From positions 55,490,001-55,554,000 of the forward strand of contig OZ024740.1 in the NCBI GenBank assembly GCA_964016885.1: 64,000 nt of DNA, written 5' to 3'. This document shows positions 8,835 to 61,578 of this stretch, in pieces; the first letter of the stretch is position 1, and every line of letters starts with the position of its first letter. The stretch comes from Eledone cirrhosa. Taxonomy: Eukaryota. Position numbers and translations under genes: made by a program. The notes below the pieces were generated by a model. The model made no database searches and was not told the DNA's origin. It saw nothing but the letters and a program-made list of their open reading frames with translations.

Positions 8835-11038
8835 ATGGAATTCTTTAAGATTACTTCCTCTTTAAAAGACATACCTCTACCTAGAATCAAAGACTTTATA
8901 AAACAATTAATAGATAAATCTGACTCTTTTATAAGGAGAATCAGGTGGCGAGCATTCCACTTTGATAAATCTAATATAAATGAAAATGTCTCGGACTTAA
9001 ACAAAGTTTTCAAATCTAAAAGAAATCCACCCCTAACAAACTTTTATCTGACTTTGAAAACGATATAATTTCTATCATACAAGGGGTCAAATTCAAGAGA
9101 AACTTCAAAGGCCAGGAATATCTGAAAGGCATTAAGGATAATATTGAGAGCTTAGAGAAAACTGAGAAGATCTTGGTGAAATCTGACAAGACCAACAACC
9201 TCTATGGAGTGCAGCATAATGGCCTCATACTGAAGGAACTGAGGAAAAAGTACAAGGTAGCAGATAAGGCCGAGCTTGAGAAAATGAATGTTGAAGCATC
9301 TTGTATAATGCACGAGTTGGAAATTGAGAACAGAACACAACCTTTCGTGCCCAGGAAACCGAAGATCAATATGAAAGATCACAAAAGGAATTTTGAAAAT
9401 GACTTGCCAGTTAGATTGATCGCACCATCAAAATCGGACCTGGGCAAATTAAGCAAAAACATTCTTGACAGGGTGATACAGCAAATTAAAAACTTGGATT
9501 GTTTACCTAACCTGAGCTTGTGGAAGGGAACTGGAGAGGTTGTTGAGTGGTTTAAGCAAATTAAATATAACAATAATAATAAGTTTATTCAACTTGATAT
9601 TGCTAACTATTATTCTTCTATTACCCCTAATCTACTAAAAAAGGCACTAAATTACGCATTCAAACATACAGACCTAACTAGCAATGAAATGCACATTATA
9701 TTATCGGCTAGGAAAACATTGATAGAATTTAATGACCAACTATGGACCAGAGCAGATAGAGATAGCAATTTTGACATTACTATGGGATCATCCGACTCAG
9801 CTCAGGTAACTGACCTTGTGGGCTTATTTTTAATCAATTCGCTACATAGGAAAATACCTGGTACTGCCGGAGGTTTATATAGAGATGACATGCTTTTACT
9901 TATTGATAATAATAACTCTGAACTAAATAGAAAAAGAAAACAAATTACACAATTTTTTAATTACTTTAATCTAAAAATAGAAATTGAGAACAACCATAGA
10001 ATAGTCAATTTCCTAGATATAACATTAAATCTCAACACATGTCTTCACTATCCATTTCACAAGTTGAATGAAAACTTAAACTATGTCAGCTTTAACTCTA
10101 ACCACCCCAGATCTGTCAAAAACACTATAGTAAACTCTGTTCAAAAACGTATCTCTAGAATTTCGTCTAATAGAAAGATTTTCGACGAAAAAGCCCAGTA
10201 CTACAATGAAGCGTTAGCTAGAGCAGGATATAGTGATAAGATTATGTACATAGATAATGATAGACAAACTAAACAAAATAACAACTATTTTAATTACGGC
10301 CACAACCTTAACAACTATAATAGAAAGCATTACAATAATTCCAAAAGCCAAAAAAGAAATAGAACTAGGAACATAATATGGTTTGCCCCCCCTTTCTCAC
10401 TAAACATTAAAACCCACATCGCTAAACTATTTTTTAAAGCTCTTGATAATCGCTTCCCTAGAACACATAGGTATCACTCAATTTTCAATAGACATACTAT
10501 AAAATTAACCTACTCATCCACCAAAAATTTAGCACAAAATATTAATAGAATAAATAATAGGAACTTAAAACCTAGCGATAATAGCATAAATAATATACAA
10601 GTAAACAAATGTAACTGTAGAGATAGATCTAAATGTCCGTTAAATAACAACTGCTTAGTTAAAAATATAATATACAACTGTAATGTTAAAACGGACTCTA
10701 ATTCTTTTAACTACGTCGGTTCCACATCGACGGAATTTAAACTTCGCTATAATAACCACAAGAATTTTTTCACAGATGCAAGCAAAAAATCTTCAACAGC
10801 ACTATCAGGCGTACTCTGGCAACTTAGGCAAGATAACGTTAGATATTCGACGGCTTGGAATATAGTCTCAAGAGGGATTCCTTTTAATTCATCCTCTGAG
10901 ACATGTGACCTCTGCGCGGAGGAGATATTCTTTATACTAAAATCTAAAAATTCCCTTAATCTACGGACAAATTTATTCAGTTGCTGCAAACATAGATTGA
11001 ACTCAACTTTTAAATATAAATTTAAATTTAAAATGTAG
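8835..11038 (+). pseudogene. Penelope-like RT + GIY-YIG endonuclease ORF with one frameshift at ~9030
   Basis: ORFs 8835-9068 and 9173-11038 join through a C-run frameshift. RT motifs LDIANYYSSI, ITMGS, YRDD, FLDITL; CNCRDRSKC (CxCx5C), IIY..YVG, RYNNH, CDLC..E..LN..CCKH. Confidence 0.88.
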
Positions 11039-24410: not shown

Positions 24411-24443
24411 TTGAAATGGAGTGGAAAAGATGGGAAAGACCAC

Positions 24444-26400
24444 TTACCTTACTTCTCGTAGAGGAAGGACGGTTTTTCTATCCTTTTCACTGCTTGTGGC
24501 CTCCTCAGGAAGGATGTCCTTATAAATCCTCCTGGAGAGTGCTTGTCGGAAGTCTCCTATGTCTTTGGGGAATTTTTGTTTTAGTGTCATGTACGTTTTC
24601 TGTGTGATGCGAGTGATTTGTATGTGTGGAGGTGGTGTGAATTTTTGGGTTGTTGTGTAGTCTTTTTCTGTGATGCTGGTGTTGTGTTGGATGTAGTGTA
24701 ATAATTGGTTGTTGTTCAAATTTAATGCTGTGTAGTGTGTATCGTTTAGGTTGTTTTGTTTTGTTTGTGTTTGTTGTGGGTTTGTTTCTGTTTCGCATTT
24801 TGGTGACTTTTGTGGTGTAGGTGATGGTGGTGTTGGGGTTAATGATGGTGATGGTGTTGGTGTTTGGGGTGATGGGGTTGGTGATGCTGGTGTGGATGGT
24901 GGCATATCCGTCCTAACTTTTTTGTTTGTTAATTTATTTGTTTCCCTCTGTATTTTGTTTTTGGAGGGGAAAGGAAGAGAATTTTTTTCTTTTTTGGTTT
25001 CCTTTTTTCTTTTTTCCTGATACCGTTTCCCACTCTTCGTCGTCACAATCTGTCTCCAGTTGTGATAGGCCGGGGAGTGGAAAATCCTCCACATGCGTTA
25101 GTTTTGGTTGTGGCGTGGTGGATGGTGTAGGCGCTGGTGTTAGTTCTGAAGCGTTGGGTGGTGGTGGGGTTGTTGTTGTTATAGTTGCTTCTGTTGTTGC
25201 TGCTACAGTTGTTGCTGCCATCTCTGCTACTGGTGGTGTTGATGGTTGAGTCACTGGGGTGAGTAGGAGAGGTGGCCTCAACCTTTTAGCCTGAGGGCAG
25301 AAAGCCCTTAGGTGGGTTCCTTCACCGCAAACGACACACCTAGGCCTTCTGCCCTCGACAATTACGGTGAGGTGGCTGCCGTCAGTGAGGTCTATTACCT
25401 CTGGGATCTCCTCAACGCTTTTTTGGTCCTTATGGATCAGGAGCTCCATCCCAGATCCGGACCAGTTCTCCTGCTTTTCTTTTGCTATTGCTATTATCTT
25501 GGTGTTGGCTTCGATGCCGGCGAGGACGGCCGCTATTAGCCAGGGAATTTCGATGGCCGGTGGAACGTGGGTCACCCTGATCTTTACGAGTCTCTGGCCA
25601 CAATAGTTTGGGACGAGTGTGAAATCGTCACTTCTTAATGGGGCCATGGAGTGTTCTCTAGCCTCCTCTGGTGTTTTAAAGAACACCTCCACGGTTCCAT
25701 ACTTCTGCCCACGTCTGATGTGGGTTTTTCTTGCCCACACATGTCCCAAAGCTTTTGGGATTTGGGACTCGGATGCCCGTTCCACTCGGCGCTATTTTAC
25801 ATTAATTGCTCGATACGACACAGTGCACAGGCGCTGATGCTCCATTTTATTAGGTGTGGTGGTGGTGGGGGTAGGGGGGGTGAAGCTGACCCTGTACCCA
25901 TCTTTCTTTACCATTTTGGGGGCATTTTCTAATTCCTCCTGAGTTACCGTAAATGCTTCGCACTGTTTTGCTACTCTGGCAAATCTGAGGGTGGTTTTTT
26001 TAATGTCATTGTTGCTGTTGTTGTTCTCGTTATTTTTGTTATTATTAATTTTAGTTTCAGTTGTGGTGGTCGTGACGTCAGTGGTGTTCGGTGTGGAAGA
26101 GTCCATTTTGGTTGAACACATTTCGACATCACGAGTTGATTTATTTTTTCCTTTTGTTTCTGTTGTCGCGGTGGTGGTGGGGGTGGTGGTTGTCGCAGTG
26201 GTGTTGGTGGTGGCGGCTTTAACACCTGCAGTCATTGGTAATGGTGGGAAATGAATGTCTGCCTGAGACAAATTTAAAATATTGCTACTGATTAAATTTT
26301 TAGTGTTGGCAAACGTAGTAATATTTACAATGGTGGTGTCGGTGTGAGGTGTTAGTTTATGAGGAATGCTGTCAACTTCGTGTGGCTGTGAGACTTCCAT
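24444..26400 (-). pseudogene. ORF1 (gag-like, CCHC knuckle) of copy 1, frameshifted
   Basis: Three consecutive ORF pieces 25792-26400, 24934-25785, 24444-25094 homologous to the 698-aa ORF1. Confidence 0.85.
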
Positions 26401-26638
26401 TTTTTTTTTTCAAAGAAATTTTTTTGATAATTATAAATGTTTAAATTTTGGGCACAAGGCCCCAATCTTTTTGAGTGTCCTTTTCGGAAAACAATGTATG
26501 TGCGCTTATAAACAGTTAACAATAAAATTTTCCATAAATGGCAATTTTAAACAAACGGAAATAACAAACCTTTGCGGAGCTCACGATGATACGATTTACT
26601 ACGTAGGTCGCCAATAATAATAATAATAATAATAATAA

Positions 26639-29600
26639 GGATTTCTTTATTGGCCACAAGGGCTGACATCAAGAAAAACATCACAGACGGAACAGGACGG
26701 TACGATGTGGGTTTTGTGCGTGTAAATATTTTAATTATTTATATAAGAAAAGAAAAAAGACATAAAACATATATATATAAACAATAAAATGAAAATTGAA
26801 ACAATGAAAAATTCTCCGACAGGGGGGAAACCTGCGAGGGTTACTCGTGGCGAAAACCACACAAAAGACCACGGCCACCCTGACTACCAGGGCAAGCGCC
26901 CTCTCTCAATTTTTCCATCTCTCAAACTACGGACGTATATTCAGAGTTCACTCGGACCATTCTCGCTACATTCACCCACCTTTCAACAAACTTGTTAGAA
27001 AGCAGCACTTGCCTCTCCACCCTGATTTTCCTCTTCAAGTGAAACTTGAAAAAGTTAATCAGGGATTCGCCGAAGAGGAAAGTGTTTGTCTTTAATCGTT
27101 TTAACGTTGTCTACCACACAATCTCTTTCGCCATGGCCACCAGGAAGATGAAAACCGTCTGCCCTTCCTCCTCAAAGGAAGACGGCGAGACCATCTGCAC
27201 AATGGACTCAGTCGACAACCGGATCAGTCTCACACGTGACAGCAACTGTTCGACATAGCTCCACAAGTCAGCAATGCTCGGGAACTGAACGAGTGCGTGC
27301 ACAACGGTTTCGTCGCTATGGGCGCATCTCGGACAGGCTCGGCTGACGGCACTTCCGTGCCTGTAGAGCTTATCTCGAACCGGCAGCGCTCCCCGGTAGC
27401 ACTGCCAGGCCAGGGATTTTTGGAAGTTATTGATAGGCCCCGGGCTGAAAGTTCTCCGGAAGAGAGCAAGCAGCTGATCTTCTTCGACGCCCAGGATCTC
27501 TCCAAGAACGTCGTCGCTCTTCCCCTCCACTAGTTCTCTATAGAACGCCGAGGTGGATGTTCCACCGATACTGGTGCCCAACTGGGAGAGGGCAGTGAGC
27601 GCCTGGATACATTCCAGTTTCCAAGCGCTATCCCTCGGTCTTTTTCTGACCCAGGAATGCAGCTCCGTCAAGGAGTGGGAAAATGTGGGAAAATGTGCCT
27701 GGCGAACGGCGCCCACACCCGTTCACCATCAAGGAAGCACCAGAGATGTCGCAGCCTCAGCGCATGTTTGCGCATCATCAACCATGGCATGCCCAGTCCT
27801 CCACGCAACGGGTGTTGACAGCAGATGGATCGTCTGACCATGGGAGCGCGTCCCTTCCACAAAAAGCGGAAGCAGAGGCGCTCCATTTTGGTGATAGTTG
27901 GGCTGTAGCAAGGGACGACGGTGAGGCGGTAGCAGATGACGGATGCAATGTACGCATTCGCCACTTCCGCCTGGCCTTTCAGGGACAGCTTCCTCTCAGC
28001 CTATTTCTGGGTGAAGGAGGCCACCCTGCTCGTCACCTCGTTCCAGTTTTTCTCCATCTGGAGGTCCGGTCCGAACCAGACTCCGAGCAATATAACTGGT
28101 CCGTCCGTCCAACGCCCCACGACGCTGTCGGACGGTATGGACTTGCACCCGTTTTGGTCAGACAAAGACCGAATTGTGGCTTTATTGCCACGTCGCGCCT
28201 CTGCCACCCGGGCCCATTGGACGGCTTTTGTCCCCCCCGTGTTTCAGAGCACGCGCTTTAGCTCTGACAACGCAGCCTTCGTGTTTTGCGTTGGTGAATT
28301 GGTCGAGTGCCAATCTCGCCGCAAGCACGTCGGTTGCGATGCCTGTCCTAAACGCCTCTTCTAGCTTTCTGACTAGCTCTCCCTCTACTCTATTTTCTTC
28401 TATCACTACTCCTTTGCTAAACCTAATCGACTCTACTTTAATTGCCCTTTTCAGGGCGAACCACCACCTCTTGTTGACGACCGCTCCCGTCAACGCCCGC
28501 TTAACTAATACGCTAATTCGGTCTCTGTAGGCCTTTCGCGCCCGGAAAGACGCGTTCAGCTTCCAGTAACCAGGCCCTTGTCTATGAAGTCTGTCTATGT
28601 CAATCTCACAGATCACAAATTTGTGGTCTGTGTAGTCGACTATTTTAAATTGTGGACAACTTATACTAGCCTTATCTAGTTCCCTGCAGAATACCCTATC
28701 TAGATACGATCTGGATAACCCGATGCGGTTTGTCCATGTCCACATTGGCACATTCGAGTGATCCAGTCGATACCTGTCAGACAGTTCAAAACGTCTGAGC
28801 AGGTTAGTGAGGCTCTTGCACCCTCCTCCCCTATCCACTAGCCCCACACGACCCCAGCGTGCATCCAAGATACCGTTCCAGTCGCCCACTAACACTAAAG
28901 AGCGGGACGTTCCAAGAAAGGTCTCTAGACGTCTGAAGAAATCTGGCCGTCCTGCCCCTGTTGGGACGTAGACGGCTACTAGCCTGAAAGCATTGCCTTC
29001 GCTGCCGGTCACGTCCAGTACCACCGACTTACCTTCTGGGTCCAGGACGATGGCCCGTATCGCGAGATCCAAGCCTCTCCGAAAAAGGACGGCAACCCCT
29101 CCCCCCGATCCTGGACGGCTGGGAGATGCGTATACATCGTAGCCGCCGAAGATCGGTGCGAAGGCCCGTGCCTCGGAGATTCTGGTTTCACTGATGGCCA
29201 CCACATCTATGTTTAGTGACCTGAGGTCATTGAGCAGGTGACCCTGCTTCCAAGATGACCACAGGCCACGTGCATTTATACTGCCTATTCTGAGTACAGC
29301 CATATTGGATGAGAAACGGGGCAAATGAGAAAGGGCCACTTACCTTGTTCGTGGGGTGAAGGGACAGTAGAACCGTCCTTTTCGCTGGTCATGGCTGTTT
29401 CCAAGAGGATGTCAGTGTATATCCTCTTGGTAACCGTCCCTCTGAAATCTCCAACTGCGTTGGGGAATTTTTGTTTTAAAGGTTTGTATTGTTCTATTGA
29501 GATTTCGATGATGCTTATGTTGGTCGGGAGAGTTCTTGGTGTTGGTGGGGTGCAGTAATTTTTTTCCGTGATGTCTGTGTGCTGCTTTATATATTTTATG

Positions 29601-37033: not shown

Positions 37034-37061
37034 AAATGATAGTAATAATAATAATAATAAT

Positions 37062-37795
37062 GCTTTCTTTATTAACCACAAGGGTTTACATAAAGTACAG
37101 GACAATACAGGACGGTACAAATGGGTATTTCTGCGTGTAAAAAAAAACAGGATGTAATAAAAAATAACAATGAAAAATTTCCCAATGGGGGGGAAACTTC
37201 CGAGGGACATTTGTGGAGAAAGCCCATTAAAAGGCCACAGTGACCCTGACCACTATGTCAAGTGCCCTCTCCCAGTTTTCCACCTTTAATTTACAGACAC
37301 ATACTCAGAGTAGGCCCATTCACTCGGGCCATTCTTGCCTCTTTCACCGCACACCTTTTTCGTCGTTGTCGTCGTCGGGGAGAAATGTTCCATGCTTTGC
37401 ACGTGATTTTGGAAGCTATTTTTCTTTACTGGCGTCGCTTGCGAAAGAGAAGGGAGGGAGAGAGACACATTTAGAGAAGGGAGGGAGAGAGACAATCTTC
37501 TCTCTGCTGTAGTGACGATTGAGGAAGAAGAAGACGGAATGAGTGGGAGTGACTTGTGAAAATTCTTTTTCCTAGCCATGTTTTTTGGGGGGTTTAAAAT
37601 GAATATTGGGCACAAAACCCCAATAAGCGGCTATTTAACCCCGAAGGGCCAAATAACGGGCAGTAAGACCCCTCTCACGAGGAGGAGGTTGTTTTTGTCT
37701 ACAATTTGGTTAAAGTTTTAAACAATTTACAATTGTTATTGCTGTCAAAATTTACTATACCTTACAGAGCCGAGCCTCCGTCAACCATGGCATTC
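37062..37795 (-). mobile_element. 734-bp internally deleted Tx1-like derivative (copy 4)
   Basis: 5'UTR plus ORF1 start (MARKKNFH) fused at ~37347 (ACC microhomology) to the last ORF2 codons and 3'UTR; (AAT)n both sides. Confidence 0.9.
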
Positions 37796-40678: not shown

Positions 40679-40713
40679 GTTTAAAATAGAGTGGAAAAGA
40701 TGGGAAAGACCAC

Positions 40714-42810
40714 TTACCGTACTTTTTGTAGAGGAGGGATGGTTTTTACATCCCCTTTCACTTGATCGTCTGGTGAAGGGACCGTTGAATCGTCCCTTCG
40801 GCTGGTCGTCGGCTCTTCTAAGAGAATGTCTGAATATACTCTTCGATTGATGGTTCCTCCTAGGTCCCTGAAATCACCAACTGCGTTGGGGAATTTCGTT
40901 TTAATGTTTGTGTATTGTTTCTGTGCTATTTTTAGCAGTCTTATGTTAGTTGGCGTTTTGATTGGTGCTGGTATTATGTAGTCCTGTTGTGAAATGTCTG
41001 TGTGTTCAATTATGTAAGTCATTAGTTTCTTGTTGTGTGTGTTTATTGCCGTGCATTTGTTTTTCTGGGGGTGGGGTGTGGTTCTGCTATTTTCTTGTCG
41101 TTGTTGCTGGGTGTGTGTGTTTTGTTGTTGTGTTTGCGATGTTGGTGCTTGTGGTGGTGGTGTTGAAGGTGTTGTTGGCGGTGGGGTTGTCGCCGGTGGT
41201 GATGGTGGTGCTGGTGTGGGTGGTGATGGTGTTGGTGGTGTTGCTGCTGTGGGTCTCTTTGCAGTAGACTTTACCCTTTTCTCATTTCTTTCCTCCCTTT
41301 TCAAAGGCGACGATGCGCTGCTTCTGCGTTTGTGCCTTCTTGCGACCTTTTGCCATCCCTCTCCCACCTCACACTCCATGTCTGATTCTGTAAGGTCGGG
41401 GAGGGGTACCAGCTCCACTCTTTCACTTGTTGTTGTTGGTGATGTTTGCACTGGAGTCTCTGTTGCAGCTGCATTTGGTATTGCTGTTGTTGTTGTTAAT
41501 ATTTCCACTGCTGCTGCTGTCTTTGATTTCCGTGGAGTGGGTATGGGTGCCACGGACCTATCGTTCCTGGTTGCCGCTTGTCCTGTTGCTGGTAGCCGTG
41601 GAGCCGGATTCGGAAGGAGGGGGGTTTTCTCCTTTCTCAGGGTCTTCTCGTTGCAGAAGGCCCTGAGGTGAGTCTTCGATCCACAGCGAAAGCATTTCGG
41701 GCGTTTGCCCTCAACACTTATGGGCAGTTGAGTGCCGTTATCGAAGTCTATCACATCCGGGATAGCTTCGATGCACTCCTGGTTGGTTTGGATTAGCATC
41801 TCAATGGAGGAGCCGACCCAATCTTCTCTTACTTTTTTCTGTACTTGCAGTACAGTTGTTTTGTCCTCGATTCCGACGAGGACAGACGCGGCCAGCCAAG
41901 AAGGGGTCATTCCGGGGGGGACGTGGGTCAGTTTGACCCTCACAATTTTTTGCCCGCAGTAGGAGGGCACCAACACCATTTCCTCGCTCCTTAGGGTCAC
42001 TACTGATTGGGCCTTTGCCTCCTGGGGTGTGGCAAAAAGTACGTCTACGGTGGCGTATTTTTTGCCTCGGGTGATGTGCGTTTTCCTCTGCCACACAGAC
42101 CCCAAGGCTTTTTGTATTTGGGCCTCTGTGGCTCTTTCCACCCTACGGGATTTTGTACTTACTGTACGGTACGTGACCGTACAGTGCTCTTGGGTTTCGA
42201 AAAAATTTTTCGCTGCCTTGCAGATTGCTCGGTGTCCGTTCTTTGTCACCATCTTCTTCGCTTCCTCTAATTCCTCATTTGTTATGAGGATTGTTTCCAA
42301 GTTTTTCGCAATACCTGCAAATGAGATTGGTTTTTCTCTGCTGTTGTTGTTGTCGTCAGAGCTGCTGGTACTTTTGTTGTTGCTGCAGGTACTACGACTA
42401 CTGCCTCCGCCGCTGTTGCTGTGGTTGTTGTTGGTGTTGCTGCTGCTAATGCTGTTGTTGTTTATGCTGCTGGTGATGCTGTTGCGGCTGCTACTGTTGT
42501 TTTCATTGTCACTGTTGCTGTTGTTATTACGGCTGCTACTGCTATTATTCCTGACGTCAGACGAATGAACTGGGTTTTCGTATTTCCCGCACACCTGTTT
42601 CGTCGCTGTCGTCGTCGTCGTGGAGAAACCTTGCACGCTTTGCACGAGACTTTTCTTTTCTTTCGTCGCTTGCGAAAGAGAAGGGAGGGAGAGAGACACA
42701 TTTAAAGAAGGGAGGGAGAGAGACAATCTTCTCTCTGCTGTAGTGATGATTGAGGAAGAAGAAGACGGAATGAGTGGGAGTGACGTATGAAATTTCTTTT
42801 TCGTAGCCAT
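40714..42810 (-). CDS. ORF1p, 698 aa gag-like nucleic-acid-binding protein of Tx1-like LINE
   Basis: Open frame; N/S-rich N-terminus, SFAG motif, zinc knuckle CFRCGSKTHLRAFC, P/T-rich linker. Confidence 0.9.
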   Translation of the reverse strand: MATKKKFHTSLPLIPSSSSSIITTAERRLSLSLPSLNVSLSLPSLSQATKEKKSLVQSVQGFSTTTTTATKQVCGKYENPVHSSDVRNNSSSSRNNNSNSDNENNSSSRNSITSSINNNSISSSNTNNNHSNSGGGSSRSTCSNNKSTSSSDDNNNSREKPISFAGIAKNLETILITNEELEEAKKMVTKNGHRAICKAAKNFFETQEHCTVTYRTVSTKSRRVERATEAQIQKALGSVWQRKTHITRGKKYATVDVLFATPQEAKAQSVVTLRSEEMVLVPSYCGQKIVRVKLTHVPPGMTPSWLAASVLVGIEDKTTVLQVQKKVREDWVGSSIEMLIQTNQECIEAIPDVIDFDNGTQLPISVEGKRPKCFRCGSKTHLRAFCNEKTLRKEKTPLLPNPAPRLPATGQAATRNDRSVAPIPTPRKSKTAAAVEILTTTTAIPNAAATETPVQTSPTTTSERVELVPLPDLTESDMECEVGEGWQKVARRHKRRSSASSPLKREERNEKRVKSTAKRPTAATPPTPSPPTPAPPSPPATTPPPTTPSTPPPQAPTSQTQQQNTHTQQQRQENSRTTPHPQKNKCTAINTHNKKLMTYIIEHTDISQQDYIIPAPIKTPTNIRLLKIAQKQYTNIKTKFPNAVGDFRDLGGTINRRVYSDILLEEPTTSRRDDSTVPSPDDQVKGDVKTIPPLQKVR

Positions 42811-46000: not shown

Positions 46001-47916
46001 TCCCAAGCCACGCACATTTATGCTGTCTATTCTGAGTGAGGTCATGTTGAAATGGAGTGGACGCGATGGGAAAGACCACTTACCGTACTTTTCGTAGAGG
46101 AAGGATGGTTTCTCCATCCCTTTTCACTTGATCGTCTGGTGAAGGGACCGTTGAATCGTCCCTTCGGCTGGTCGTCGGCTCTTCTATGAGTATGTCCGAA
46201 TATACTCTTCGGTTGAGAGTCCCTCCTAGGTCTTTGAAATCACCAACTCCGTTGGGTAATTTCGTTTTAATGTTTGTGTATTGTTTCTGTGCTATTTTTA
46301 CCAGTCTTATGTTCGTTGGCGTTTTGATTGGTGCTGGAATTGTGTAGTCGTGCTGTGAAATGTCTGTGTGTTCAATTATGTAAGTCATTAGTTTCTTGTT
46401 GTGTGTATTTATTGCCGTACATTTGTTTTTCTGGGGGTGGGGTGTGATTCTGCTATTTTCTTGTCGTTTTTGCTGCGTGTGTGTTTGTTGTTGTGTTTGC
46501 GATGTTGGTGCTTGTGGTGGTGGTGTTGAAGGTGTTGTTGTTGTTGGCGGTGGGGTTGTCGCCGGTGATGATGATGGTGCTAGTGTGGGTGGTGATGGTG
46601 TTGGTGGTGTTGCTGCTGTGAGTCTCTTTGCAGTAGCCTTTACCCTTTTTTCATTTCTTTCCTCCATTTTCGAAGGCGTCGATGCGCTTCTTCTGCGTTT
46701 GTGCCTTCTTGCGACCTTTTGCCATCCCTCTCCCACCTCACACTCCATGTCTGATTCTGTGAGGTCGGGGAGGGGTACCAGCTACACTCTTTCACTTGTT
46801 GTTGTTGGTGATGTTTGCAGTGGAGTCTCTGTTGGAGCTGCAGTTGGTATTACTGTTGTTGTTGTTAATACTTCGACTGCTGCTGCTGTTTTTGATTTCC
46901 GTGCGTGGGTATGGGTGCCACGGACCTATCGTTCCTGGTTGCCGCTTGTCCTATTGCTGGTAGCAGTAGAGCCGGTTTCGGAAGGAGGGGGGTTTTCTCC
47001 TTTCTCAGGGTCTTCTCGTTGCAGAAGGCACTGAGGTGAGTCTTCGATCCACAGCGAAAGCATTTCGGGCATTTGCCCTCAACACTTATGGGCAGTTGAG
47101 TGCCGTTATCGAAGTCTATCACATTCGGGATAGCTTCGATGCACTCCTGGTTGGTTTGGATTAAATATCTCAATTGAGGTGCCGACCCAATCTTCTCTTA
47201 CTCTTTTCTGTACTTGCAGTACAGTTGTTTTGTCCTCGATTCCGACGAGGACAGACGCGGCCAGCCAAGAAGGGGCCATTCCGGGGGGGGTGGGTCAGTT
47301 TGACTCTCACAATTGTTGTTGTTGTTGTTGCTGCTGCTAATGCTGTTGTTGTTTATGCTGCTGCTGATGCTGTTGCGGCTGCTACTGTTGTTTTCCTTGT
47401 CACTGTTGCTGTTGTTATTACGGCTGCTACTGCTATTATTCAGACGAATGAAATGGGTTTTCGTATTTACCGCACACCCTTTTCGTCGTTGTCGTCGTCG
47501 GGGAGAAATGTTCCATGCTTTGCACGTGATTTTGGAAGCTATTTTTCTTTACTGGCGTCGCTTGCGAAAGAGAAGGGAGGGAGAGAGACACATTTAGAGA
47601 AGGGAGGGAGAGAGACAATCTTCTCTCTGCTGTAGTGACGATTGAGGAAGAAGAAGACGGAATGAGTGGGAGTGACTTGTGAAAATTCTTTTTCCTAGCC
47701 ATGTTTTTGGGGGGTTTAAAATGAATATTGGGCACAAAACCACAATAAGCGGCTATTTAACCCTGAAGGGCCAAATAACAGGCAGTAAGACCCTCTCACG
47801 AGGAGGAGGTTGTTTTTGTCTACAATTTGGTTAAAGTTTTAAACAATTTACAATTGTTATAGCTGTCAAAATTTACTATACCTTACAGGGCTGAGCCTCC
47901 GTCAACCATGGCATTC
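43056..47916 (-). mobile_element. L1/Tx1-clade LINE copy 6 (family A, MARKKNF 5' variant), several internal deletions
   Basis: ORF1 pieces 46080-47702 and ORF2 pieces 43309-46045; both termini present; (AAT)n both sides. Confidence 0.92.
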
Positions 47917-52275: not shown

Positions 52276-53835
52276 CAGTTGCATTTATCTTGCTTTATGT
52301 TCATACGAGTTATCACCAAGTCACAACCAGTGACCTCAAGAGACAACAAGGTCCGCCATGTTCAAGAAAGAAAATACATATTCACACATGCATCTTTAGT
52401 GTTTAGACTTGTGATGTACTTATATTGACAGAATCTTCCTTAGTATATGGACAGTTCCCATTAGTACTATCTTTTGTATTTCTCCTATACGCGGGTTTCC
52501 TGGGATTTGCGATAAGTTTTCATTAGACCCCTTAGGTATCATTCCCAGAGCGCCTACAACCACTGGTATTGTTTTAGTTCTCAATTTCCACATTTTTCCA
52601 ATTTCTCTCTCCAGGTCCTTATACTTGCTCAATTTTTCAAATGTTTTTATAGATACATTCTTGTCTATTGGAACAGACATATCAATTAGCAGGCATACCC
52701 TCTTTTGAAAGTCCTTCAATATTATATCAGGTCTATTTGCATCTATTTTTCGGTCCGTTTGGATGCTAAAGTTCCACAAGATTGAGATGTGATCTTTTTC
52801 AAGTATGGGAGGTGGTTGATGCTCCCACCAATTCTTTTGATGGGGCAGGTCAAAATGCTTACACATTATCCAATGTATGTATTGTGCAGCTCTGCCATGC
52901 CTGTTTAGGTATTCGGTTGGAGCTATAGGACTGCACATTGAAATTATATGGTCAATGGTCTCTGGTTGTTTTTTGCATACACGGCATAATGGGCTGCACC
53001 CATTTTTTATTATGTTGGCTTGGTAATCGTTTGTTGGCAGACACTGATCTTGTGCCGATATAATCAGTCCTTCAGTCTCCGATTTCAGTCCAGAGGATGC
53101 CAACCACTGATGGGTTAAAGTTTTGTCAACATCAGGATTGTTAGCTCGCTCTGGGTATTTTCCATACAGAGACTTTTCTTGCCATTTCTTAGCCAGTTTC
53201 TGTAGCAGTTCTTTCTTTGCAGTTACTTTTACCTGCTTTGCTTTTTCTGTGTTTTCCATTTCAGCAGTAAATGGGACTTCTGAAATGTGTAGTCCATTAC
53301 TGTATCTTTGTGCATCTTTTGTAATGGAATATGATCTTTTGATGCTTTCGCGTTTCAAAACGAGTTTGATCATCCAATCATGTGATTCCCTTAGATATGT
53401 AGATAATCCAATTGTTGCAGTTTTCAACGCAATCTCTAACTGGATTAACCCACGTCCTCCTTCTTTCCTAGGGAGATATATTCTATCTATATCTGCCTTA
53501 GGGTGATGCATTCTGTGCATGGTTAAGAATTTTCGAATTTTTGTATCGAGCCTACGGATCTCTGTGCTTGACCAGTTGATGACATTGTAACTGTAGGTTA
53601 CTACTGGTATGGCAAGCGTGTTTATGGCATCGATCCTATTCCTTGCATTCAATTCCGTTCTTAAGATTGCTCTTACTCTGCGGTAACATTCCTTCCTTAT
53701 CCTTTCCCTCATTGTCGAGTGCTTGATTCCGTCTCCTTCACAAACACCTAGATATTTGTAAGTTTTTTCTTGATCAAGTTCTCTTATCACGTTCCTCCGA
53801 TCAAGATTAATGTCTGAACTCTTCAGCAGCTTTCC

Positions 53836-53837
<2 letters not shown>
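52276..53837 (-). mobile_element. R4/Dong-like non-LTR retrotransposon, 5'-truncated (RT thumb, CCHC, restriction-like endonuclease)
   Basis: YKYLG, EGGRGL, CRVCKKQPETIDHIISMC, RPDI..LIDMSVP..KLSKY; sense-strand (TAA)n tail. Confidence 0.88.
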
Positions 53838-53923
<86 letters not shown>

Positions 53924-53924
<1 letters not shown>

Positions 53925-55483
53925 AGTTGTATTTATCTTGCTTTATGTTCATACGAGTTATCACCAAGTCGCAACCAGTGACCTCAAGAGACAACAAGGT
54001 CAACCATGTTCAAGAAAGAACATTCATACTCACACATGCATCTTTAGTGTTTAGACTTGTGATGTACTTATATTGACAGAATCTTCCTTAGTATATGGGC
54101 AGTTCCCATTAGTACTATCTTTTGTATTTCTCCTATACGCAGGTTTCCTGGGATTTGCGATAAGTAATCATTAGACCCCTTAGGTATCATTCCCAGAGCG
54201 CCTACAACCACTGGTATAGTTTTAGTTCTCAATTTCCACATTTTTCCAATTTCTATCTCCAGGTCCTTATACTTGCTCAATTTTTCAAATGTTTTTATAG
54301 ATACATTCTTGTCTATTGGAACAGACATATCAATTAGCAGGCATACCCTCTTTTGAAAGTCCTTCAATATTATATCAGGTCTATTTGCATCTATTTTTCG
54401 GTCTGTTTGGATGCTAAAGTTCCACAAAATTGAGATGTGATCTTTTTCAAGTATGGGAGGTGGTTGATGCTCCCACCAATTCTTTTGATGGGGCAGGTCA
54501 AAATGCTTACACATTATCCAATGTATGTATTGTGAAGCTCTGTCATGCTTGTTTAGGTATTCGGTTTGAGCTATAGGACTGAACATTGAAATTATATGGT
54601 CAATGGTCTCTGGTTGTTTTTTGCATACACGGCATAATGGGCTGCATCCATTTTTTATTATGTTGGCTTGGTAATTTTTTGTTGGCAGACACTGATTTTG
54701 TGGTGATATAATCAGTCCTTCAGTCTCCGATTTCAGTCCAGAGGATGCCAACCACTGATGGGTTAAAGTTTTGTCAACATCAGGATTGTTAGCTCGCTCT
54801 GGGTATTTTCCATACAGAGACTTTTCTTGCCATTTCTTAGCCAGTTTCTGTTGCAGTTCTTTCTTTGCAGTTACTTTTTCCTGCTTTGCTTTTTCTGTGT
54901 TTTCCATTTCAGCAGTAAATGGGACTTCTGAAATTTGTAGTCCATTACTGTATCTTTGTGCATCTTTTGTAATGGAATATGATCTTTTGATGCTTTCGTG
55001 TTTCAAAACGAGTTTGATCATCCAATCATGTGATTCCCTTAGATATGTAGATAATCCAATTGTTGCAGTTTTCAACGCAATCTCTAACTGGATTCACCCA
55101 CGTCCTCCTTCTTTCCTAGGGAGATATATTCTATCTATATCTGCCTTAGGGTGATGCATTCTGTGCATGGTTAAGAATTTTCGAATTTTTGTATCGAGTC
55201 TACGGATCTCTGTGCTTGACCAGTTGATGACATTGTAACTGTAGGTTACTACTGGTATGGCAAGCGTGTTTATGGCATCGATCCTATTCCTTGCATTCAA
55301 TTCCGTTCTTAAGATTGCTCTTACTCTGCGGTAACATTCCTTCCTTATCCTTTCCCTCATTGTCGAGTGCTTGATTCCGTCTCCTTCACAAACACCTAGA
55401 TATTTGTAAGTTTTTTCTTGATCAAGTTCTCTTATCACGTTCCTCCGATCAAGATTAATGTCTGAACTCTTCAGCAGCTTTCC

Positions 55484-55485
<2 letters not shown>
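53924..55485 (-). mobile_element. R4/Dong-like non-LTR retrotransposon, second 5'-truncated copy with the same breakpoint
   Basis: Highly similar to 52276-53837; both start AAAGGAAAGCTG (KGKL); in-frame stop near 55094. Confidence 0.88.
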
Positions 55486-55519
<34 letters not shown>

Positions 55520-55618
55520 GAATGCCATGGTTGACGGAGGCTCGGCTCTGTAAGGTATAGTAATTTTTAACCGTTAAAACAATTGTAAATTGTTTAAAAC
55601 TTGAACCAAATTGTTGAT

Positions 55619-55685
55619 AAAGACACCCTCCTCCTCGTGAGAGGGGTCTTTCTGTCCGTTATTTGGCCCTTCGGGGTTAAATAAC
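55619..55685 (+). promoter_or_regulatory. Tandem 5'UTR stem-loops with GNRA (GUGA) and cUUCGg tetraloops
   Basis: AAAGAC..CTC-GTGA-GAG..GTCTTT and GTTATTTGGCCC-TTCG-GGGTTAAATAAC. Confidence 0.6.
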
Positions 55686-55735
55686 CAGTTATTGGGGTTT
55701 TGTACCCAAAATTTCATTTTAAACAAAAAAACAAC

Positions 55736-57833
55736 ATGGCTACGAAAAAGAAATTTCATACGTCACTCCCACTCATTCCGTCTTCTTCTTCCTCAATCAT
55801 CACTACACCAGAGAGAAGATTGTCTCTCTCCCTCCCTTCTTTAAATGTGTCTCTCTCCCTCCCTTCTCTTTCGCAAGTGACGAAAGAAAAGAAAAGTCTC
55901 GTGCAAAGCGTGCAAGGTTTCTCCACGACGACGACGACAGCGACGAAACAGGTGTGCGGGAAATACGAAAACCCAGTTCATTCGTCTGACGTCAGGAATA
56001 ATAGCAGTAGCAGCCGTAATAACAACAGCAACAGTGACAATGAAAACAACAGTAGCAGCCGCAACAGCATCACCAGCAGCATAAACAACAACAGCATTAG
56101 CAGCAGCAACACCAACAACAACCACAGCAACAGCGGCGGAGGCAGTAGTCGTAGTACCTGCAGCAACAACAAAAGTACCAGCAGCTCTGACGACAACAAC
56201 AACAGCAGAGAAAAACCAATCTCATTTGCAGGTATTGCGAAAAACTTGGAAACAATCCTCATAACAAATGAGGAATTAGAGGAAGCGAAGAAGATGGTGA
56301 CAAAGAACGGACACAGAGCAATCTGCAAGGCAGCGAAAAATTTTTTCGAAACCCAAGAGCACTGTACGGTCACGTACCGTACAGTAAGTACAAAATCCCG
56401 TAGGGTGGAAAGAGCCACAGAGGCCCAAATACAAAAAGCCTTGGGGTCTGTGTGGCAGAGGAAAACGCACATCACCCGAGGCAAAAAATACGCCACCGTA
56501 GACGTACTTTTTGCCACACCCCAGGAGGCAAAGGCCCAATCAGTAGTGACCCTAAGGAGCGAGGAAATGGTGTTGATGCCCTCCTACTGCGGGCAAAAAA
56601 TTGTGAGGGTCAAACTGACCCACGTCCCCCCCCGGAATGACCCCTTCTTGGCTGGCTGCGTCTGTCCTCGTCGGAATCGAGGACAAAACAACTGTACTGC
56701 AAGTACAGAAAAAAGTAAGAGAAGATTGGGTCGGCTCCTCCATTGAGATGCTAATCCAAACCAACCAGGAGTGCATCGAAGCTATCCCGGATGTGATAGA
56801 CTTCGATAACGGCACTCAACTGCCCATAAGTGTTGAGGGCAAACGCCCGAAATGCTTTCGCTGTGGATCGAAGACTCACCTCAGGGCCTTCTGCAACGAG
56901 AAGACCCTGAGAAAGGAGAAAACCCCCCTCCTTCCGAATCCGGCTCCACGGCTACCAGCAACAGGACAAGCGGCAACCAGGAACGATAGGTCCGTGGCAC
57001 CCATACCCACTCCACGGAAATCAAAGACAGCAGCAGCAGTGGAAATATTAACAACAACAACAGCAATACCAAATGCAGCTGCAACAGAGACTCCAGTGCA
57101 AACATCACCAACAACAACAAGTGAAAGAGTGGAGCTGGTACCCCTCCCCGACCTTACAGAATCAGACATGGAGTGTGAGGTGGGAGAGGGATGGCAAAAG
57201 GTCGCAAGAAGGCACAAACGCAGAAGCAGCGCATCGTCGCCTTTGAAAAGGGAGGAAAGAAATGAGAAAAGGGTAAAGTCTACTGCAAAGAGACCCACAG
57301 CAGCAACACCACCAACACCATCACCACCCACACCAGCACCACCATCACCACCGGCGACAACCCCACCGCCAACAACACCTTCAACACCACCACCACAAGC
57401 ACCAACATCGCAAACACAACAACAAAACACACACACCCAGCAACAACGACAAGAAAATAGCAGAACCACACCCCACCCCCAGAAAAACAAATGCACGGCA
57501 ATAAACACACACAACAAGAAACTAATGACTTACATAATTGAACACACAGACATTTCACAACAGGACTACATAATACCAGCACCAATCAAAACGCCAACTA
57601 ACATAAGACTGCTAAAAATAGCACAGAAACAATACACAAACATTAAAACGAAATTCCCCAACGCAGTTGGTGATTTCAGGGACCTAGGAGGAACCATCAA
57701 TCGAAGAGTATATTCAGACATTCTCTTAGAAGAGCCGACGACCAGCCGAAGGGACGATTCAACGGTCCCTTCACCAGACGATCAAGTGAAAGGGGATGTA
57801 AAAACCATCCCTCCTCTACAAAAAGTACGGTAA
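55736..57833 (+). pseudogene. ORF1 of copy 9 with one +1 frameshift in a C8 run (56626-56633)
   Basis: Almost identical to the 698-aa ORF1 of copy 5, which has 7 C at this position. Confidence 0.88.
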
Positions 57834-57835
57834 GT
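57828..57835 (+). promoter_or_regulatory. Candidate consensus 5' splice site CG|GTAAGT overlapping the ORF1 stop
   Basis: Perfect GTAAGT, also present in copies 1, 2, 5 and 6 at 39-40 nt before the ORF2 start. Confidence 0.45.
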
Positions 57836-57868
57836 GGTCTTTCCCATCTTTTCCACTCTATTTTAAAC

Positions 57869-60800
57869 ATGACCTCACTCAGAATAGGCAGCATAAATGC
57901 GCGTGGCTTGGGGTCGTCATGGAAGCAGGGTCACCTGCTCAACGACCTCAGGTCACTAAACATAGGTGTAGTGGCCATCAGCGAGACCAGAATCTCCGAA
58001 GCACGGGCTTTCGCACCGATCTTCGGCGGCTACGATGTGTACGCATCTCCCAGCCGTCCTGGATCGGGTGGAGGAGTTGCTGTGCTTTTTCGGAGAGGTT
58101 TGGATCTCGCCATACGGGCCATCTTCCTGGACCCAGAGGGTAAGCTGGTGGTGCTGGACGTGACCAGCGGAGACGGGCAAGCTTTCAGGCTAGTGGCCGT
58201 CTATGCCCCGACAGGAGCAGGGCGGCCTGATTTCTTCCGGCGTCTGGAGACCTTTCTTGGAACGTCCCACTCTTTAGTGTTAGTGGGCGACTGGAACGGG
58301 ATCTTAGATGCACGCTGGGACTGTGTGGGATTAGCGGATAGGGGTGGAGGGTGCAAGAGCCTCACCAACCTGCTCAGGCGTTTTGAACTGTCTGACAGGT
58401 ACCGATTGGATTTCCCAAATGTGCCAATGTGGACTTGGACAAACCGCATAGGGTCATCCAGATCATATCTAGATAGAGTATTTTGTAGGGAAATAGATAG
58501 GTCTAGCATAGGCTGTCCACAATTCAAGATAGTCAGCTACACGGACCACAAATTCGTGACCTGTGTGCTTGACTTAGATAGGCTTCATAGACGAGGACCC
58601 GGCTACTGGAAGCTAAACGCGTCCTTACCAGCGCGCAAGGCCTACAGAGACCGGATTAGCGAACTAGTTAAGCGGGCGTTGACGGGGGCCATCGTCAACA
58701 ACAAGTGGTGGTTTGCTCTGAAAAGAGCGATTAGAATAGAATCGATTAGGTTTAGTAAGGCTTTAGCAATAGAGAAAAATAGAGCAGAGGGAGAACTAGT
58801 TAGAAAATTAGACGAGGCGCTTAGCAAAGGCATTGCGACCGACGTGCTTGCGGCGAAATTGGCCCTTGACCAATTCTTCAATGCAAAGCACGAAGGCTGC
58901 GTTGTCAGAGCTAGGGTGCGTGCTCTCAGACACGAGGGGACGAAAGCCGTTCAATGGGCCCGAGTGGCGGAGGCGCGTCGTGGCAACAAAGCCACGATCC
59001 GGTCTTTGGTGGACCACAACGGGCGCATGCTACTCGATCCCGGGCAAATGTGTGAAGCTTTTCAGCGACACTTCGCTCAGCTGTTCGGGGGCAGCGGGGG
59101 GCCGGGTAGAGGGATGGACTTTAGTGTCTACCTCGACGGACTGCCGCGGCTCTCGGCCACTGAGGCGAAGTGTTGCGAAAAGCCGATAACAGCCGCTGAA
59201 GTACGGGAGGCAATGACTGGCTGCACAAGGGGTAAATCGCCTGGTTTGGATGGTCTGCCCTATGAACTTTACGTACAGATGCCAGACTTGTTCGGAGGCC
59301 TCTTGGCGGACGTCTACTGCAACTGGCAACAGAACGGGAGAATTCCCAGTTCTGTGAGCCGAGGAGCGGTGGCACTGCTGAGAAAGGATCCGAACAAGGG
59401 GGATAACATAGACAATTTCCGGCCCATAACTCTGCTAAACACAGAGTTTAAGATTTTGGCCAAGGTGCTAGCAAAGAGGTTGGCGCTTGTCGTTGGTGGT
59501 CTGGTGGGAGAGGCGCAGACATGCGCCATTCCCGACAGATCCATCCACGACAACCTCCACCTCATGCGATACATCGTAGAGAGGGTAGCTAGGGAACCTG
59601 GCACGGGTGGGTCCTTGATCAATTTAGATCAGTCGAAAGCTTTCGATAGGGTCGACCATCGTTACCTAGCGGCAGTCCTGAGGGCGGCTGGCTTGGGGCC
59701 CGTCTTCAGAGGCTGGATCGCTGCCATGCACAGCGACATCTGCTCTGTAGTGAGAGTGAACGGTCACCTGTCGGAACCGTTCAACATCATGCGCTCGGTC
59801 CGCCAAGGATGTCCCCTCTCGTCCCTCTTGTACGTATTGACTCTCGAGCCATTACTGCACAAACTGGAGACGTTGAGGGGAGTCCCGCGCGAACTAGGAT
59901 GCGGAAGATCCGTGTCAGCATATGCGGACGATGTCACCGTAGTGGTGTCGAACGCCAAACACATCGAGGCGATCGGCACTACACTAAGAGAATACGAAGC
60001 GGTGACAGGAGCAATGATCAACCAGCAAAAGTCAGTGGGCCTGCAGCTCGGCACCTGGAGAGGCAGGTCCATGCCGTCCAACAGCGTCGTCGGGCGCTGG
60101 ACGGACGGACCGGTTAAATTGCTAGGGGTCTGGTTCGGTCCGGACCTCCAGACGGACAAAAACTGGGACGAGGTGACGAGCAGGGTGGCTTCTCTCACCC
60201 AGAAATGGGCGGAGAGGAAGCTATCCCTGAAAGGTCGAGCGGAGGTGGCTAACGCGTACATCGCGTCTGTCATCTGCTACCGCCTAACCGTCGTACCTTG
60301 TCCTAAGCCTCGCCTGACTGCGCTGGAGCGTTTGCTCTTTCGCTTTTTGTGGAAGGGACGTGCTCCGATGGTCAGGCGGTCCATCTGTTGTCAACACCCG
60401 CTACGTGGAGGGCTGGGCATGCCGTGGCTGATGATGCGCAGGCACGCGCTCAGGCTACGACATCTCCACCTCTTCCTCGACGGTGATCAGGTGTGGTCGC
60501 CGTTTGCTAGACGCGTTTTTCCCCAGCTCGTTTCCTTGACGGAGCTGCAGTCCTGGGTCAAGCGAAGACCGAGAGGGAGCGCCTGGAGACTGGAATGTCT
60601 TCAGGCGCTCACAGCCCTCGACCAATCGGGCAATGTGATCGGTGGAAACTCCACCTCGGCGTTCTATAGAGGATTAGTGGAGGGGAAGAGCGACGACGTA
60701 CTTGGGGAAACTCTAGGCGTCGACGAAAATCAACTAGCCAATCTCTTCGGAAGAACTTTCGGGCCAGGGCCTATGGACAACTTCCAGAAATCTCTGGCCT

Positions 60801-61288
60801 GGCAGTGCTACCGAGGAGCCTTGCCAGTTCGGGATAAACTCTACAGGCATGGAGGTGCCGTCAGCCGGGCATGTCCGAGATGCGCGCAGGGCGACGAAAC
60901 CGTCCTGCACGCACTCGTCCAGTGTCCGAAAATTGCTGACTTGTGGGTTTATGTCGAACACCTGCTGTCGCGTTTAGGACGGATCCAGCTATCATCTGAG
61001 TCTATCGTGAGGATTGCCCCGCCCTCCTCCTTTAGCCGGGAAGGGCAGGCAGTTTTTATCTGTCTGGTGGCCATGGCGAAAGAGATAGTATGGTGGACAC
61101 GTTTGAAAGGGCTGAAGACGAGCACTGACCTCTTCGGTGATGCTCTGATTGACTTTTTCAAATTTCATTTGAAAAGGAAAATCAGAGTAGAGAAGGAAGT
61201 GCTCTCTTCCCAGCATTTTGTTGAAAGATGGGTGAGAGAAGCAAGAATGGCCCGAGTGAATGGGCCGACTCTGAGTATATATCTGTAA
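57869..61288 (+). CDS. ORF2p, 1139 aa: APE endonuclease, reverse transcriptase, C-terminal Zn-binding domain (L1/Tx1 clade)
   Basis: SINARGL, ISET, GDWN, YLDR, TDH; KSPGLDG, FRPITLLN, LDQSKAFDRV, RQGCPLS, YADD; CPRC..ETVLHALVQC. Confidence 0.96.
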   Translation: MTSLRIGSINARGLGSSWKQGHLLNDLRSLNIGVVAISETRISEARAFAPIFGGYDVYASPSRPGSGGGVAVLFRRGLDLAIRAIFLDPEGKLVVLDVTSGDGQAFRLVAVYAPTGAGRPDFFRRLETFLGTSHSLVLVGDWNGILDARWDCVGLADRGGGCKSLTNLLRRFELSDRYRLDFPNVPMWTWTNRIGSSRSYLDRVFCREIDRSSIGCPQFKIVSYTDHKFVTCVLDLDRLHRRGPGYWKLNASLPARKAYRDRISELVKRALTGAIVNNKWWFALKRAIRIESIRFSKALAIEKNRAEGELVRKLDEALSKGIATDVLAAKLALDQFFNAKHEGCVVRARVRALRHEGTKAVQWARVAEARRGNKATIRSLVDHNGRMLLDPGQMCEAFQRHFAQLFGGSGGPGRGMDFSVYLDGLPRLSATEAKCCEKPITAAEVREAMTGCTRGKSPGLDGLPYELYVQMPDLFGGLLADVYCNWQQNGRIPSSVSRGAVALLRKDPNKGDNIDNFRPITLLNTEFKILAKVLAKRLALVVGGLVGEAQTCAIPDRSIHDNLHLMRYIVERVAREPGTGGSLINLDQSKAFDRVDHRYLAAVLRAAGLGPVFRGWIAAMHSDICSVVRVNGHLSEPFNIMRSVRQGCPLSSLLYVLTLEPLLHKLETLRGVPRELGCGRSVSAYADDVTVVVSNAKHIEAIGTTLREYEAVTGAMINQQKSVGLQLGTWRGRSMPSNSVVGRWTDGPVKLLGVWFGPDLQTDKNWDEVTSRVASLTQKWAERKLSLKGRAEVANAYIASVICYRLTVVPCPKPRLTALERLLFRFLWKGRAPMVRRSICCQHPLRGGLGMPWLMMRRHALRLRHLHLFLDGDQVWSPFARRVFPQLVSLTELQSWVKRRPRGSAWRLECLQALTALDQSGNVIGGNSTSAFYRGLVEGKSDDVLGETLGVDENQLANLFGRTFGPGPMDNFQKSLAWQCYRGALPVRDKLYRHGGAVSRACPRCAQGDETVLHALVQCPKIADLWVYVEHLLSRLGRIQLSSESIVRIAPPSSFSREGQAVFICLVAMAKEIVWWTRLKGLKTSTDLFGDALIDFFKFHLKRKIRVEKEVLSSQHFVERWVREARMARVNGPTLSIYL

Positions 61289-61547
61289 ACTAAAGGTGGA
61301 AAACTGGGAGAGGGCACTTGCCTTGGTGGTCAGGGTCATTGTGGCTTTTTACTGGGCTTTCTCCACAAATGTCCCTCCGAAGTCTCCCCCTATTGGGGAA
61401 TTTTTCATTGTTATTTTCATTGTTATTTTTGTTACATCCTCTGTTTTTGTTTTTTTACACGCAGAAATGCCCATTTGTACCGTCCTGCATTGTCCTGCAC
61501 TGTCCTTAATGTCTACTTTATGTAAACCCTTGTGGTTAATAAAGAAA

Positions 61548-61549
<2 letters not shown>

Positions 61550-61578
<29 letters not shown>
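61550..61578. repeat. (TTA)n run, right border of the retroelement stack
   Basis: Directly visible. Confidence 0.95.

Follow-up and report, generated by a model that had tools for sequence, protein, structure and literature searches.

A 5' splice-site consensus conserved at the end of ORF1 in L1/Tx1-type LINEs, and its possible use in removing ORF2

The DNA analysed here is a window of 64,000 nucleotides (nt) from Eledone cirrhosa (contig OZ024740.1, positions 55,490,001 to 55,554,000 of the forward strand), of which the part from 20.3 to 61.6 kb consists of nested copies of long interspersed nuclear elements (LINEs) inserted in (AAT)n tracts. These elements contain two open reading frames (ORF1 and ORF2), and at the end of ORF1 every window copy that retains the junction displays the motif G|GTAAGTGG, a match to the consensus of a 5' splice site (donor). 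The same donor lies at the end of ORF1 in a distant family, so that the motif is conserved in three different reading-frame settings, and donor and acceptor consensus sequences are also found in the 3' untranslated regions (3'UTRs) of two distant families. From these sequences we infer U1 binding, splicing, the choice of an acceptor and a purpose. We hypothesize, with a probability of roughly 0.45, that the motif is a donor which in some transcripts is alternatively spliced to an acceptor in the 3'UTR, giving an mRNA for ORF1 only. Taking the different readings together, a U1 site under selection appears likely.

The donor motif at the junction of ORF1 and ORF2

The element is filed as an L1/Tx1-type LINE. 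Pfam matches of ORF2 comprise an N-terminal apurinic/apyrimidinic (AP) endonuclease (PF03372, E 1.8e-12), a reverse transcriptase (RT; PF00078, E 2.6e-28) and a C-terminal zinc motif (PF13966, E 6.6e-8), with no RNase H family among them, and the closest PDB match is human L1 ORF2p (E 7.6e-54). The copies terminate in, and nest within, (AAT)n/(ATT)n, a target-sequence preference as in the Tx1 clade. An intact ORF1 of 698 amino acids is present in copy 5 (40714-42810, - strand); it displays a CCHC pattern and no Pfam match, its look-alikes in the Atlas are CCHC or ZCCHC3-like proteins (0.90-0.92, a lead only), and named relatives of ORF1 occur in Octopus sinensis, O. bimaculoides and Argonauta hians, which makes an octopus the likely host. 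In a tree without named Tx1 references, the window elements, the distant families G001-main and L021 (see below), P0001-P0004 and P0091 form one clade with support 1.0. The features around the junction are:

55520..61576, + strand: copy 9 (family A), a near full-length LINE with two ORFs, flanked by (ATT)n tracts
55736..57833, + strand: ORF1 of copy 9, with a frameshift near 56626 that splits the frame, a putative CCHC knuckle and the C-terminal end ...LQKVR-stop
57786..57828, + strand: 43-nt segment missing from family B; the end of ORF1 is duplicated here in degenerate form (42/43 nt), and this segment is the second unit
57829..57837, + strand: donor motif of copy 9 (D1); the TAA within it is the ORF1 stop in family A
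57838..57868, + strand: pyrimidine-rich spacer without AG, 77-83% C+T in four copies against 41-46% on either side
57869..61288, + strand: ORF2 of copy 9 (1139 amino acids), with AP endonuclease, RT and zf-RVT
57880..57882, + strand: nearest CAG 3' of the donor, a rival acceptor that would give a 53-nt mini-intron and, in family A, an in-frame fusion of ORF1 and ORF2
40710..40718, - strand: donor motif of copy 5 (family A)
46076..46084, - strand: donor motif of copy 6 (family A)
24440..24448, - strand: donor motif of copy 1 (divergent ORF1, 3' part of family A)
29336..29344, - strand: donor motif of copy 2 (family B), read as GGT AAG TGG in the ORF1 frame

A preliminary description of this DNA had reported a perfect donor 39-40 nt before ORF2. 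The motif is indeed found in all five window copies that retain the junction: GGTAAGTGG is invariant in them, and each reads G|GTAAGT, the donor consensus. The first G of the putative intron (57830 on the + strand in copy 9; 40717, 46083, 24447 and 29343 on the - strand in copies 5, 6, 1 and 2) lies 39, 39, 38, 38 and 40 nt from the start of ORF2, so the reported distance is correct to within one base (38-40 nt). "Perfect" applies to positions -1 to +6 only, as family A displays CG|GT rather than AG|GT. On the sense strand of copies 9, 5, 6 and 1, D1 is the sole G|GTRAGT. As described before, ORF1 of family A ends in the TAA of the motif, which in family B is read out of frame: copy 2 displays CAA GGT AAG TGG, and its ORF1 continues for 18 more codons; the 43-nt segment shifts the ORF1 frame across the donor. 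The start codon of ORF2 in copy 1 is ATA. In copy 3 (family C, ~34995, - strand) a deletion has removed the junction and joins the C-terminal domain of ORF1 to residue ~131 of ORF2, apparently in frame, a joint at which splicing and microhomology are indistinguishable. Frameshifting by -1 at the junction was dropped as a candidate, since copies 9, 6 and 1 have no common slippery heptamer.

Evidence from the window by itself is only suggestive, because the copies are close kin and the frame of family B differs by one base. Copies 9 and 5 are 99.6% alike. Copy 1, put forward earlier as support from a different ORF1, is 83% identical to copy 9 from 57786 on (95% in ORF2), and by this comparison belongs to family A from there and provides no independent evidence. 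Its divergent ORF1 (24490-26612, - strand), joined to an ORF1 end and ORF2 of family A, represents a swap of ORF1, and its ORF2 contains a 388-nt insertion near 23545. Immediately 5' of the donor, the frames of copies 2 and 1 are offset by a single base (at offset 1, 27 of 45 positions match, against 11-13 at offsets 0, 2 and 3), and copy 2 is decayed, with many other frameshifts. At least one GGTAAGT is contained in 23% of 300 shuffles of the 6-kb element, and in the C-terminal region of ORF1 and the 3'UTR, copies 9 and 2 agree fully in about 5% of all 9-nt windows.

Recurrence in distant families

A scan of a genome collection yielded 44 loci, 39 of them on eukaryote-like contigs in one bacterial bin (G001), evidently a contamination by host DNA. 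Thirty-eight of these represent one tandemly arrayed family (G001-main), and one represents a second family (L021). Contigs C3-C19 (L008-L047) display head-to-tail arrays of mostly intact LINEs with a period of 6.4-6.9 kb and up to 10 units per contig, resembling telomere- or ribosomal DNA-like retrotransposon arrays; among the subfamilies, 38% of columns are invariant in the C-terminal DNA of ORF1 versus 88% in ORF2.

ORF2 of G001-main is 40.9% identical to that of copy 9, and at the DNA level, matches between the window and this family reach no more than 14-21 nt (E 0.16) over the 600 nt surrounding the junction. Here the ORF1 stop TAA is followed by G and then by GTAAGT, with the ATG of ORF2 13 nt after the GT. 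This AAG|GTAAGT donor is found at 65 of 65 ORF1 ends (63 exact, two variants checked), and it is constant across nine subfamilies, whose aligned units are 88-97% alike, whereas the two bases after +6 vary. By chance, G|GTRAGT is expected at 1.1e-4 per base, hence with a probability of about 0.2% in a 20-nt spacer and about 1% allowing for the six distant junctions examined. Since a distant family displays the same donor, the motif appears to exceed chance. It occupies three coding settings, namely the ORF1 stop in family A, G-K-W codons in family B and a non-coding spacer in G001-main, and is therefore not explained by a stop codon or by protein constraint. The earlier argument that the stop codon does not account for the conservation is thereby supported, as the donor follows the ORF1 stop in all 65 copies.

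The 4.7 kb of G001-main contain only two G|GTRAGT sites in sense orientation, at the end of ORF1 and 14 nt after the ORF2 stop. Eight of the nine subfamilies have both, the second site of the remaining one reading A|GTAAGT, and no such site is antisense. At 14 nt after the ORF2 stop position, GTRAGT is found in 62 of 62 ORF2 ends, alternating between GTAAGT and GTGAGT; in one subfamily its TAA now serves as the ORF2 stop, as the TAA of D1 serves as the ORF1 stop in family A. An acceptor consensus, consisting of a tract of 78-96% pyrimidine and YRTAG with invariant TAG, follows 237-263 nt after the second donor in 22 of 23 distinct 3'UTRs. A similar arrangement is found in L021, whose ORF2 is 40.4% identical to that of copy 9:

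L012, 5991: donor of G001-main at the end of ORF1
L012, 9486 and ~9735: second donor and acceptor of G001-main, an apparent 3'UTR intron of 237-263 nt
L021, 5890-6033: candidate 3'UTR intron in three of three copies; CAG|GTAAGT lies 40 nt past the stop of ORF2, and TTAG with a long pyrimidine tract lies 144 nt further on

Because of these second donors and acceptors in G001-main and L021, splice-type signals, as judged from consensus, bracket ORF2 in this clade. A further donor 216 nt inside ORF2 of L021 may be due to chance, at 0.9 expected per unit. A TGGGA after the G001 donor, resembling a termination upstream ribosome-binding site (TURBS), was dropped as it varies among subfamilies.

These data bear on a rival explanation, by which the motif is no splice signal and its conservation reflects descent together with overlapping constraints (stop codon, G-K end of the protein, a termination-reinitiation signal for ORF2), the rest being chance. 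In accordance with this, the TAA terminates ORF1 in family A and gives a stop in the ORF2 frame in family B and G001, about 5% of 9-mers outside ORF2 are common to families A and B, 0.6-0.9 such sites occur per element by chance, and L021 lacks the motif. However, the same nine bases occur in three coding settings and are wholly non-coding in G001, conservation ends at +6 with a distance to the ATG of 13-40 nt, and a second donor with an A/G switch at +3 follows the ORF2 stop. We consider this explanation rather unlikely.

Protein data may indicate which frame is older. ORF1 homologs with 24-27% identity end in PPDQGK-stop (P0125) and PPEGKS-stop (P0133, Argonauta hians), aligning with PHEQGKW of copy 2 and being compatible, at the protein level only, with GGT AAG T. 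Among 153 ORF1-like proteins listed, only about eight families reach the C-terminal domain of ORF1 intact; GK near the C-terminus is present in three (P0123, P0125, P0133) and absent in five (P0144, P0148, P0186, P0191, P0212). P0191 and P0212 resemble the G001 type, in which the donor is invisible in the protein because it follows the stop. The frame of family B is probably ancestral, since G001-main has its donor in the same ORF1 phase and two ORF1 proteins end in GK-stop and GKS-stop; that of family A would have arisen with the 43-nt duplication.

Predicted splicing and competing readings

LINEs need far more ORF1p than ORF2p, which is commonly ascribed to inefficient reinitiation on one unspliced bicistronic RNA. 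According to the mechanism proposed here, U1 would recognise the motif as a 5' splice site, and a share of transcripts would be spliced from there to a 3'UTR acceptor, with loss of ORF2. The excess of ORF1p for the LINE particle would come from the spliced, ORF1-only RNA, and the unspliced form would be both the message for ORF2 and the template for copying. Since the donor is located where ORF1 stops, and the AUG of ORF2 follows after 13-40 nt, an intron starting there would keep ORF1 almost or fully intact and delete the ORF2 start. As this would hold for any intron from the donor, a fixed donor could be combined with an acceptor that varies between families. The spliced product would encode unchanged ORF1p in G001-main, and would add 19 residues in family A. 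In this terminal exon, the spliced frame is favoured marginally, by one of several looks (p 0.04): of five substitutions that distinguish subfamilies, four are silent in it (one of four and none of five in the other frames), and the stop is kept as TAA or TAG. The candidate sites in the 3'UTR of copy 9 are:

61405..61464, + strand: U-rich tract ending in CAG, candidate 3' splice site, in family A only
61465..61549, + strand: candidate terminal exon with 19 extra codons, a stop at 61523-61525, AATAAA at 61538-61543 and a predicted stem-loop at ~61521-61541

In agreement with the preliminary description, the U-rich tract is followed by CAG (61462-61464) in six of six family A copies, and the predicted product, with the C-terminal end R-NAHLYRPALSCTVLNVYFM-stop, reaches its TAA (61523-61525) before the AATAAA at 61538. 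Upstream of the CAG, inspection by eye revealed only weak TTAC matches to a branch point. The predicted stem-loop 61521-61541 (+ strand) around CCTTGT, just 5' of AATAAA, is common to families A, B and C and includes one compensatory pair (A-U/G-C), making it a candidate recognition element for RT. Contigs from run X2 return from the 3' end of the element to 61455 (61455-61545, depth 433 and 363); by these contigs, a 3' end of 90 nt is repeated in tandem in many genomic copies.

Several observations weigh against splicing. Of 2031 joints in four public sets, the 15 listed include none that uses D1, and of 19 indels, the 12 listed include none that matches a splice; these sets are contigs, which drop rare forms. 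Retrocopies with an exact deletion of the intron, the sign that the preliminary description had looked to, were not seen: the precise deletion was found in none of the four family A window copies with both sites and in none of the 65 G001 copies. The earlier suggestion that ORF2 may be a removable intron is supported as to the conservation of the motif at the nucleotide level, independently of the stop, whereas no spliced form was seen. The exact acceptor at 61464 is likewise restricted to family A: both family B copies display CAC, as reported earlier, and copy 3 (family C) has CAT, so that a pyrimidine tract with YAG occurs there in none of three copies of families B and C. The next AG of family B lies inside the predicted 3' stem-loop, without a stop in the frame of copy 2. 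No conserved second donor was found in the window families. The 65 G001 copies are tandem and do not count as independent events; the ORF1 stop of L021, a member of the same clade, lacks a donor, leaving one of two distant in-clade families positive, and G|GTRAGT is found at the ORF1 end in none of four outgroups (L046, L055, L057, L062). Finally, the 3'UTR intron is retained in all G001 copies although neither ORF would be harmed by losing it, which accords with weak or absent splicing and cannot be explained unless splicing is weak, the spliced RNA is no template or intron-less copies die out.

In the outgroup L046 (28% ORF2 identity), the stop of ORF1 is followed after one base by A|GTAAAT (4922-4935), which weakly resembles a donor and has the position seen in G001-main. 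Internal deletions in copies 2, 4, 5, 6 and 7 were considered as splice products and rejected: none starts at the donor, and their ends are short direct overlaps, not GT..AG. Run X1, possibly of RNA, gives no coverage of the donor and so speaks neither for nor against splicing. Cis preference is established for L1 and is assumed for the present LINE; since a spliced RNA would make no ORF2p, spliced copies would be rare in DNA.

The retained introns, together with a donor that is conserved when the acceptor is not, are also consistent with binding of the U1 small nuclear ribonucleoprotein without productive splicing, by which it would control 3'-end formation or the nuclear fate of the full-length RNA, either through protection resembling telescripting or through damping of polyadenylation by a donor near the 3' end. 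U-rich tracts directly 3' of D1 in the window and of the second donor in G001 accord with this, and the donor of the Copia element EVD also blocks premature termination (PMC5580714). On the other hand, copy 9 is free of AATAAA and ATTAAA from the donor to 61538, its cryptic ones lying upstream at 57500 and 57642, and the acceptors of G001-main and L021 are complete and as far from their donors as in ordinary introns. U1 binding alone seems unlikely to us.

Alternatively, the donor may be spliced to downstream host exons or to a nearby acceptor, as a mini-intron of 52-54 nt ending just after the ORF2 ATG. The pyrimidine-rich spacer is free of AG, with the first CAG at +53, +52 and +54 in copies 9, 6 and 2, and in family A the product would be a gag-pol-like in-frame fusion (...QKVR|IGSINARG...) retaining the whole endonuclease motif. 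Yet family B would only lose the ORF2 start, and in G001 the fusion is impossible, with a stop before the donor and the ATG 13 nt after it. Moreover, all close homologs conserve the start methionine of ORF2, the matching AG is replaced by CTG in copy 1, and typical animal introns are longer than 52-54 nt, with no minimum for octopus among the publications listed. This outcome is very unlikely.

If splicing to the 3'UTR holds true, some LINEs would use host splicing to obtain their excess of ORF1p, converging on the solution of Copia elements and retroviruses, and the host would gain a splicing switch on mobility; fusion transcripts of ORF1 with host sequence would be expected from many insertions. 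A broader version, which we regard as doubtful, is that spliced transcription units are the common design of an entire clade of Tx1-like LINEs in invertebrates, with donors after the ORF1 and ORF2 stops competing for one 3'UTR acceptor. Each unit would yield two spliced mRNAs, one for ORF1 only and one bicistronic, besides the genomic RNA without splicing, and host splicing would set both the ORF1p:ORF2p ratio and mobility, as in retroviruses and Copia. A 3'UTR intron with its donor less than 50 nt from the stop escapes junction-dependent decay, and the second donors of G001-main and L021 lie within this distance of the ORF2 stop.

Comparison with known systems and further features of the window

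We found no report of a LINE intron removing ORF2, or of host splicing in this role in LINEs, as judged from titles and the beginnings of abstracts. Searches for ORF1 C-termini or spliced gene models gave 0 matches, scans of viral sequences were empty, and a metagenome scan returned 7 loci of RTE-like or bacterial exonucleases, which are irrelevant. Penelope-like elements retain introns in genomic copies and zebrafish ZfL2 has splice sites, in both cases at other positions or strands. Among these and TART, we know of no intron that brackets ORF2. TART, with its antisense introns, likewise keeps spliceosomal introns in genomic copies, at another position or strand (PMC1636488).

The closest functional analogy is the Copia GAG system. 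Arabidopsis EVD (Ty1/Copia) has a conserved, U1-matching donor at the end of GAG, and its splicing gives a GAG-only subgenomic RNA (PMC5580714). The location of the donor at the end of the structural-protein gene and the RNA for the structural protein only, predicted in our case, are common to both. EVD differs as an element with long terminal repeats (LTRs), a single GAG-POL frame and a short intron coupled to premature polyadenylation (PMC5580714), whereas the present LINE is a non-LTR, bicistronic element with a predicted 3.6-kb intron ending in the 3'UTR. Having two ORFs and no LTRs, it is no member of the Copia system.

Functional splice sites in LINE RNA are described for human L1, with SpORF2 (PMC2896524) and SpIREs (PMC5860796), where spliced forms alter the protein output and can be dead ends. 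Their donors are located in the 5'UTR, and promoter or ORF1 sequence is removed, giving ORF2-only RNA or truncated ORF1p (PMC2896524, PMC5860796). By contrast, the present donor coincides with the stop of ORF1, its use would eliminate ORF2, and it persists between families with only 41% protein identity; no SpIRE-like retrocopy with a precise GT-AG deletion was seen among the large deletions of window copies 2, 4, 5, 6 and 7 or among the 65 G001 copies. In Lyosin and other fusion exons of L1 ORF1 with host genes, ORF1 serves as an exon via a 5' splice site at its end (PMC12129022). Those are single domesticated copies spliced to host exons, whereas the present donor belongs to an active element family.

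As to relatives, the Tx1-clade LINEs Kibi and Koshi target (TC)n and (TTC)n (PMC4494074), and L1-Tx1 families are reported from Octopus vulgaris (PMC13282606). They resemble the present LINE in their two ORFs, the combination of AP endonuclease, RT and zinc motif, and insertion into microsatellites; the target differs from that of Kibi and Koshi, being (AAT)n. Splice signals are not mentioned in the excerpts of PMC4494074 and PMC13282606 (0 matches to "splic" in the latter).

Some further features of the DNA were noted. A non-autonomous derivative of 752 nt (37044-37795, - strand) consists of the first ~440 nt and the last ~330 nt of the element, with both ORFs deleted. Two 5'-truncated copies of another LINE, RTE-like by eye, are located in (AAT)n next to the Tx1-type copies (52420-55573, - strand). 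An ORF of 584 amino acids without Pfam match (9284-11038, + strand) resembles, by eye, a Penelope-type RT with a GIY-YIG-like end. In Octopus sinensis, the "tectonic-3-like" gene model P0052 contains a stretch 62% identical to the endonuclease of the element, which may be an exonised piece of a LINE or an annotation error.

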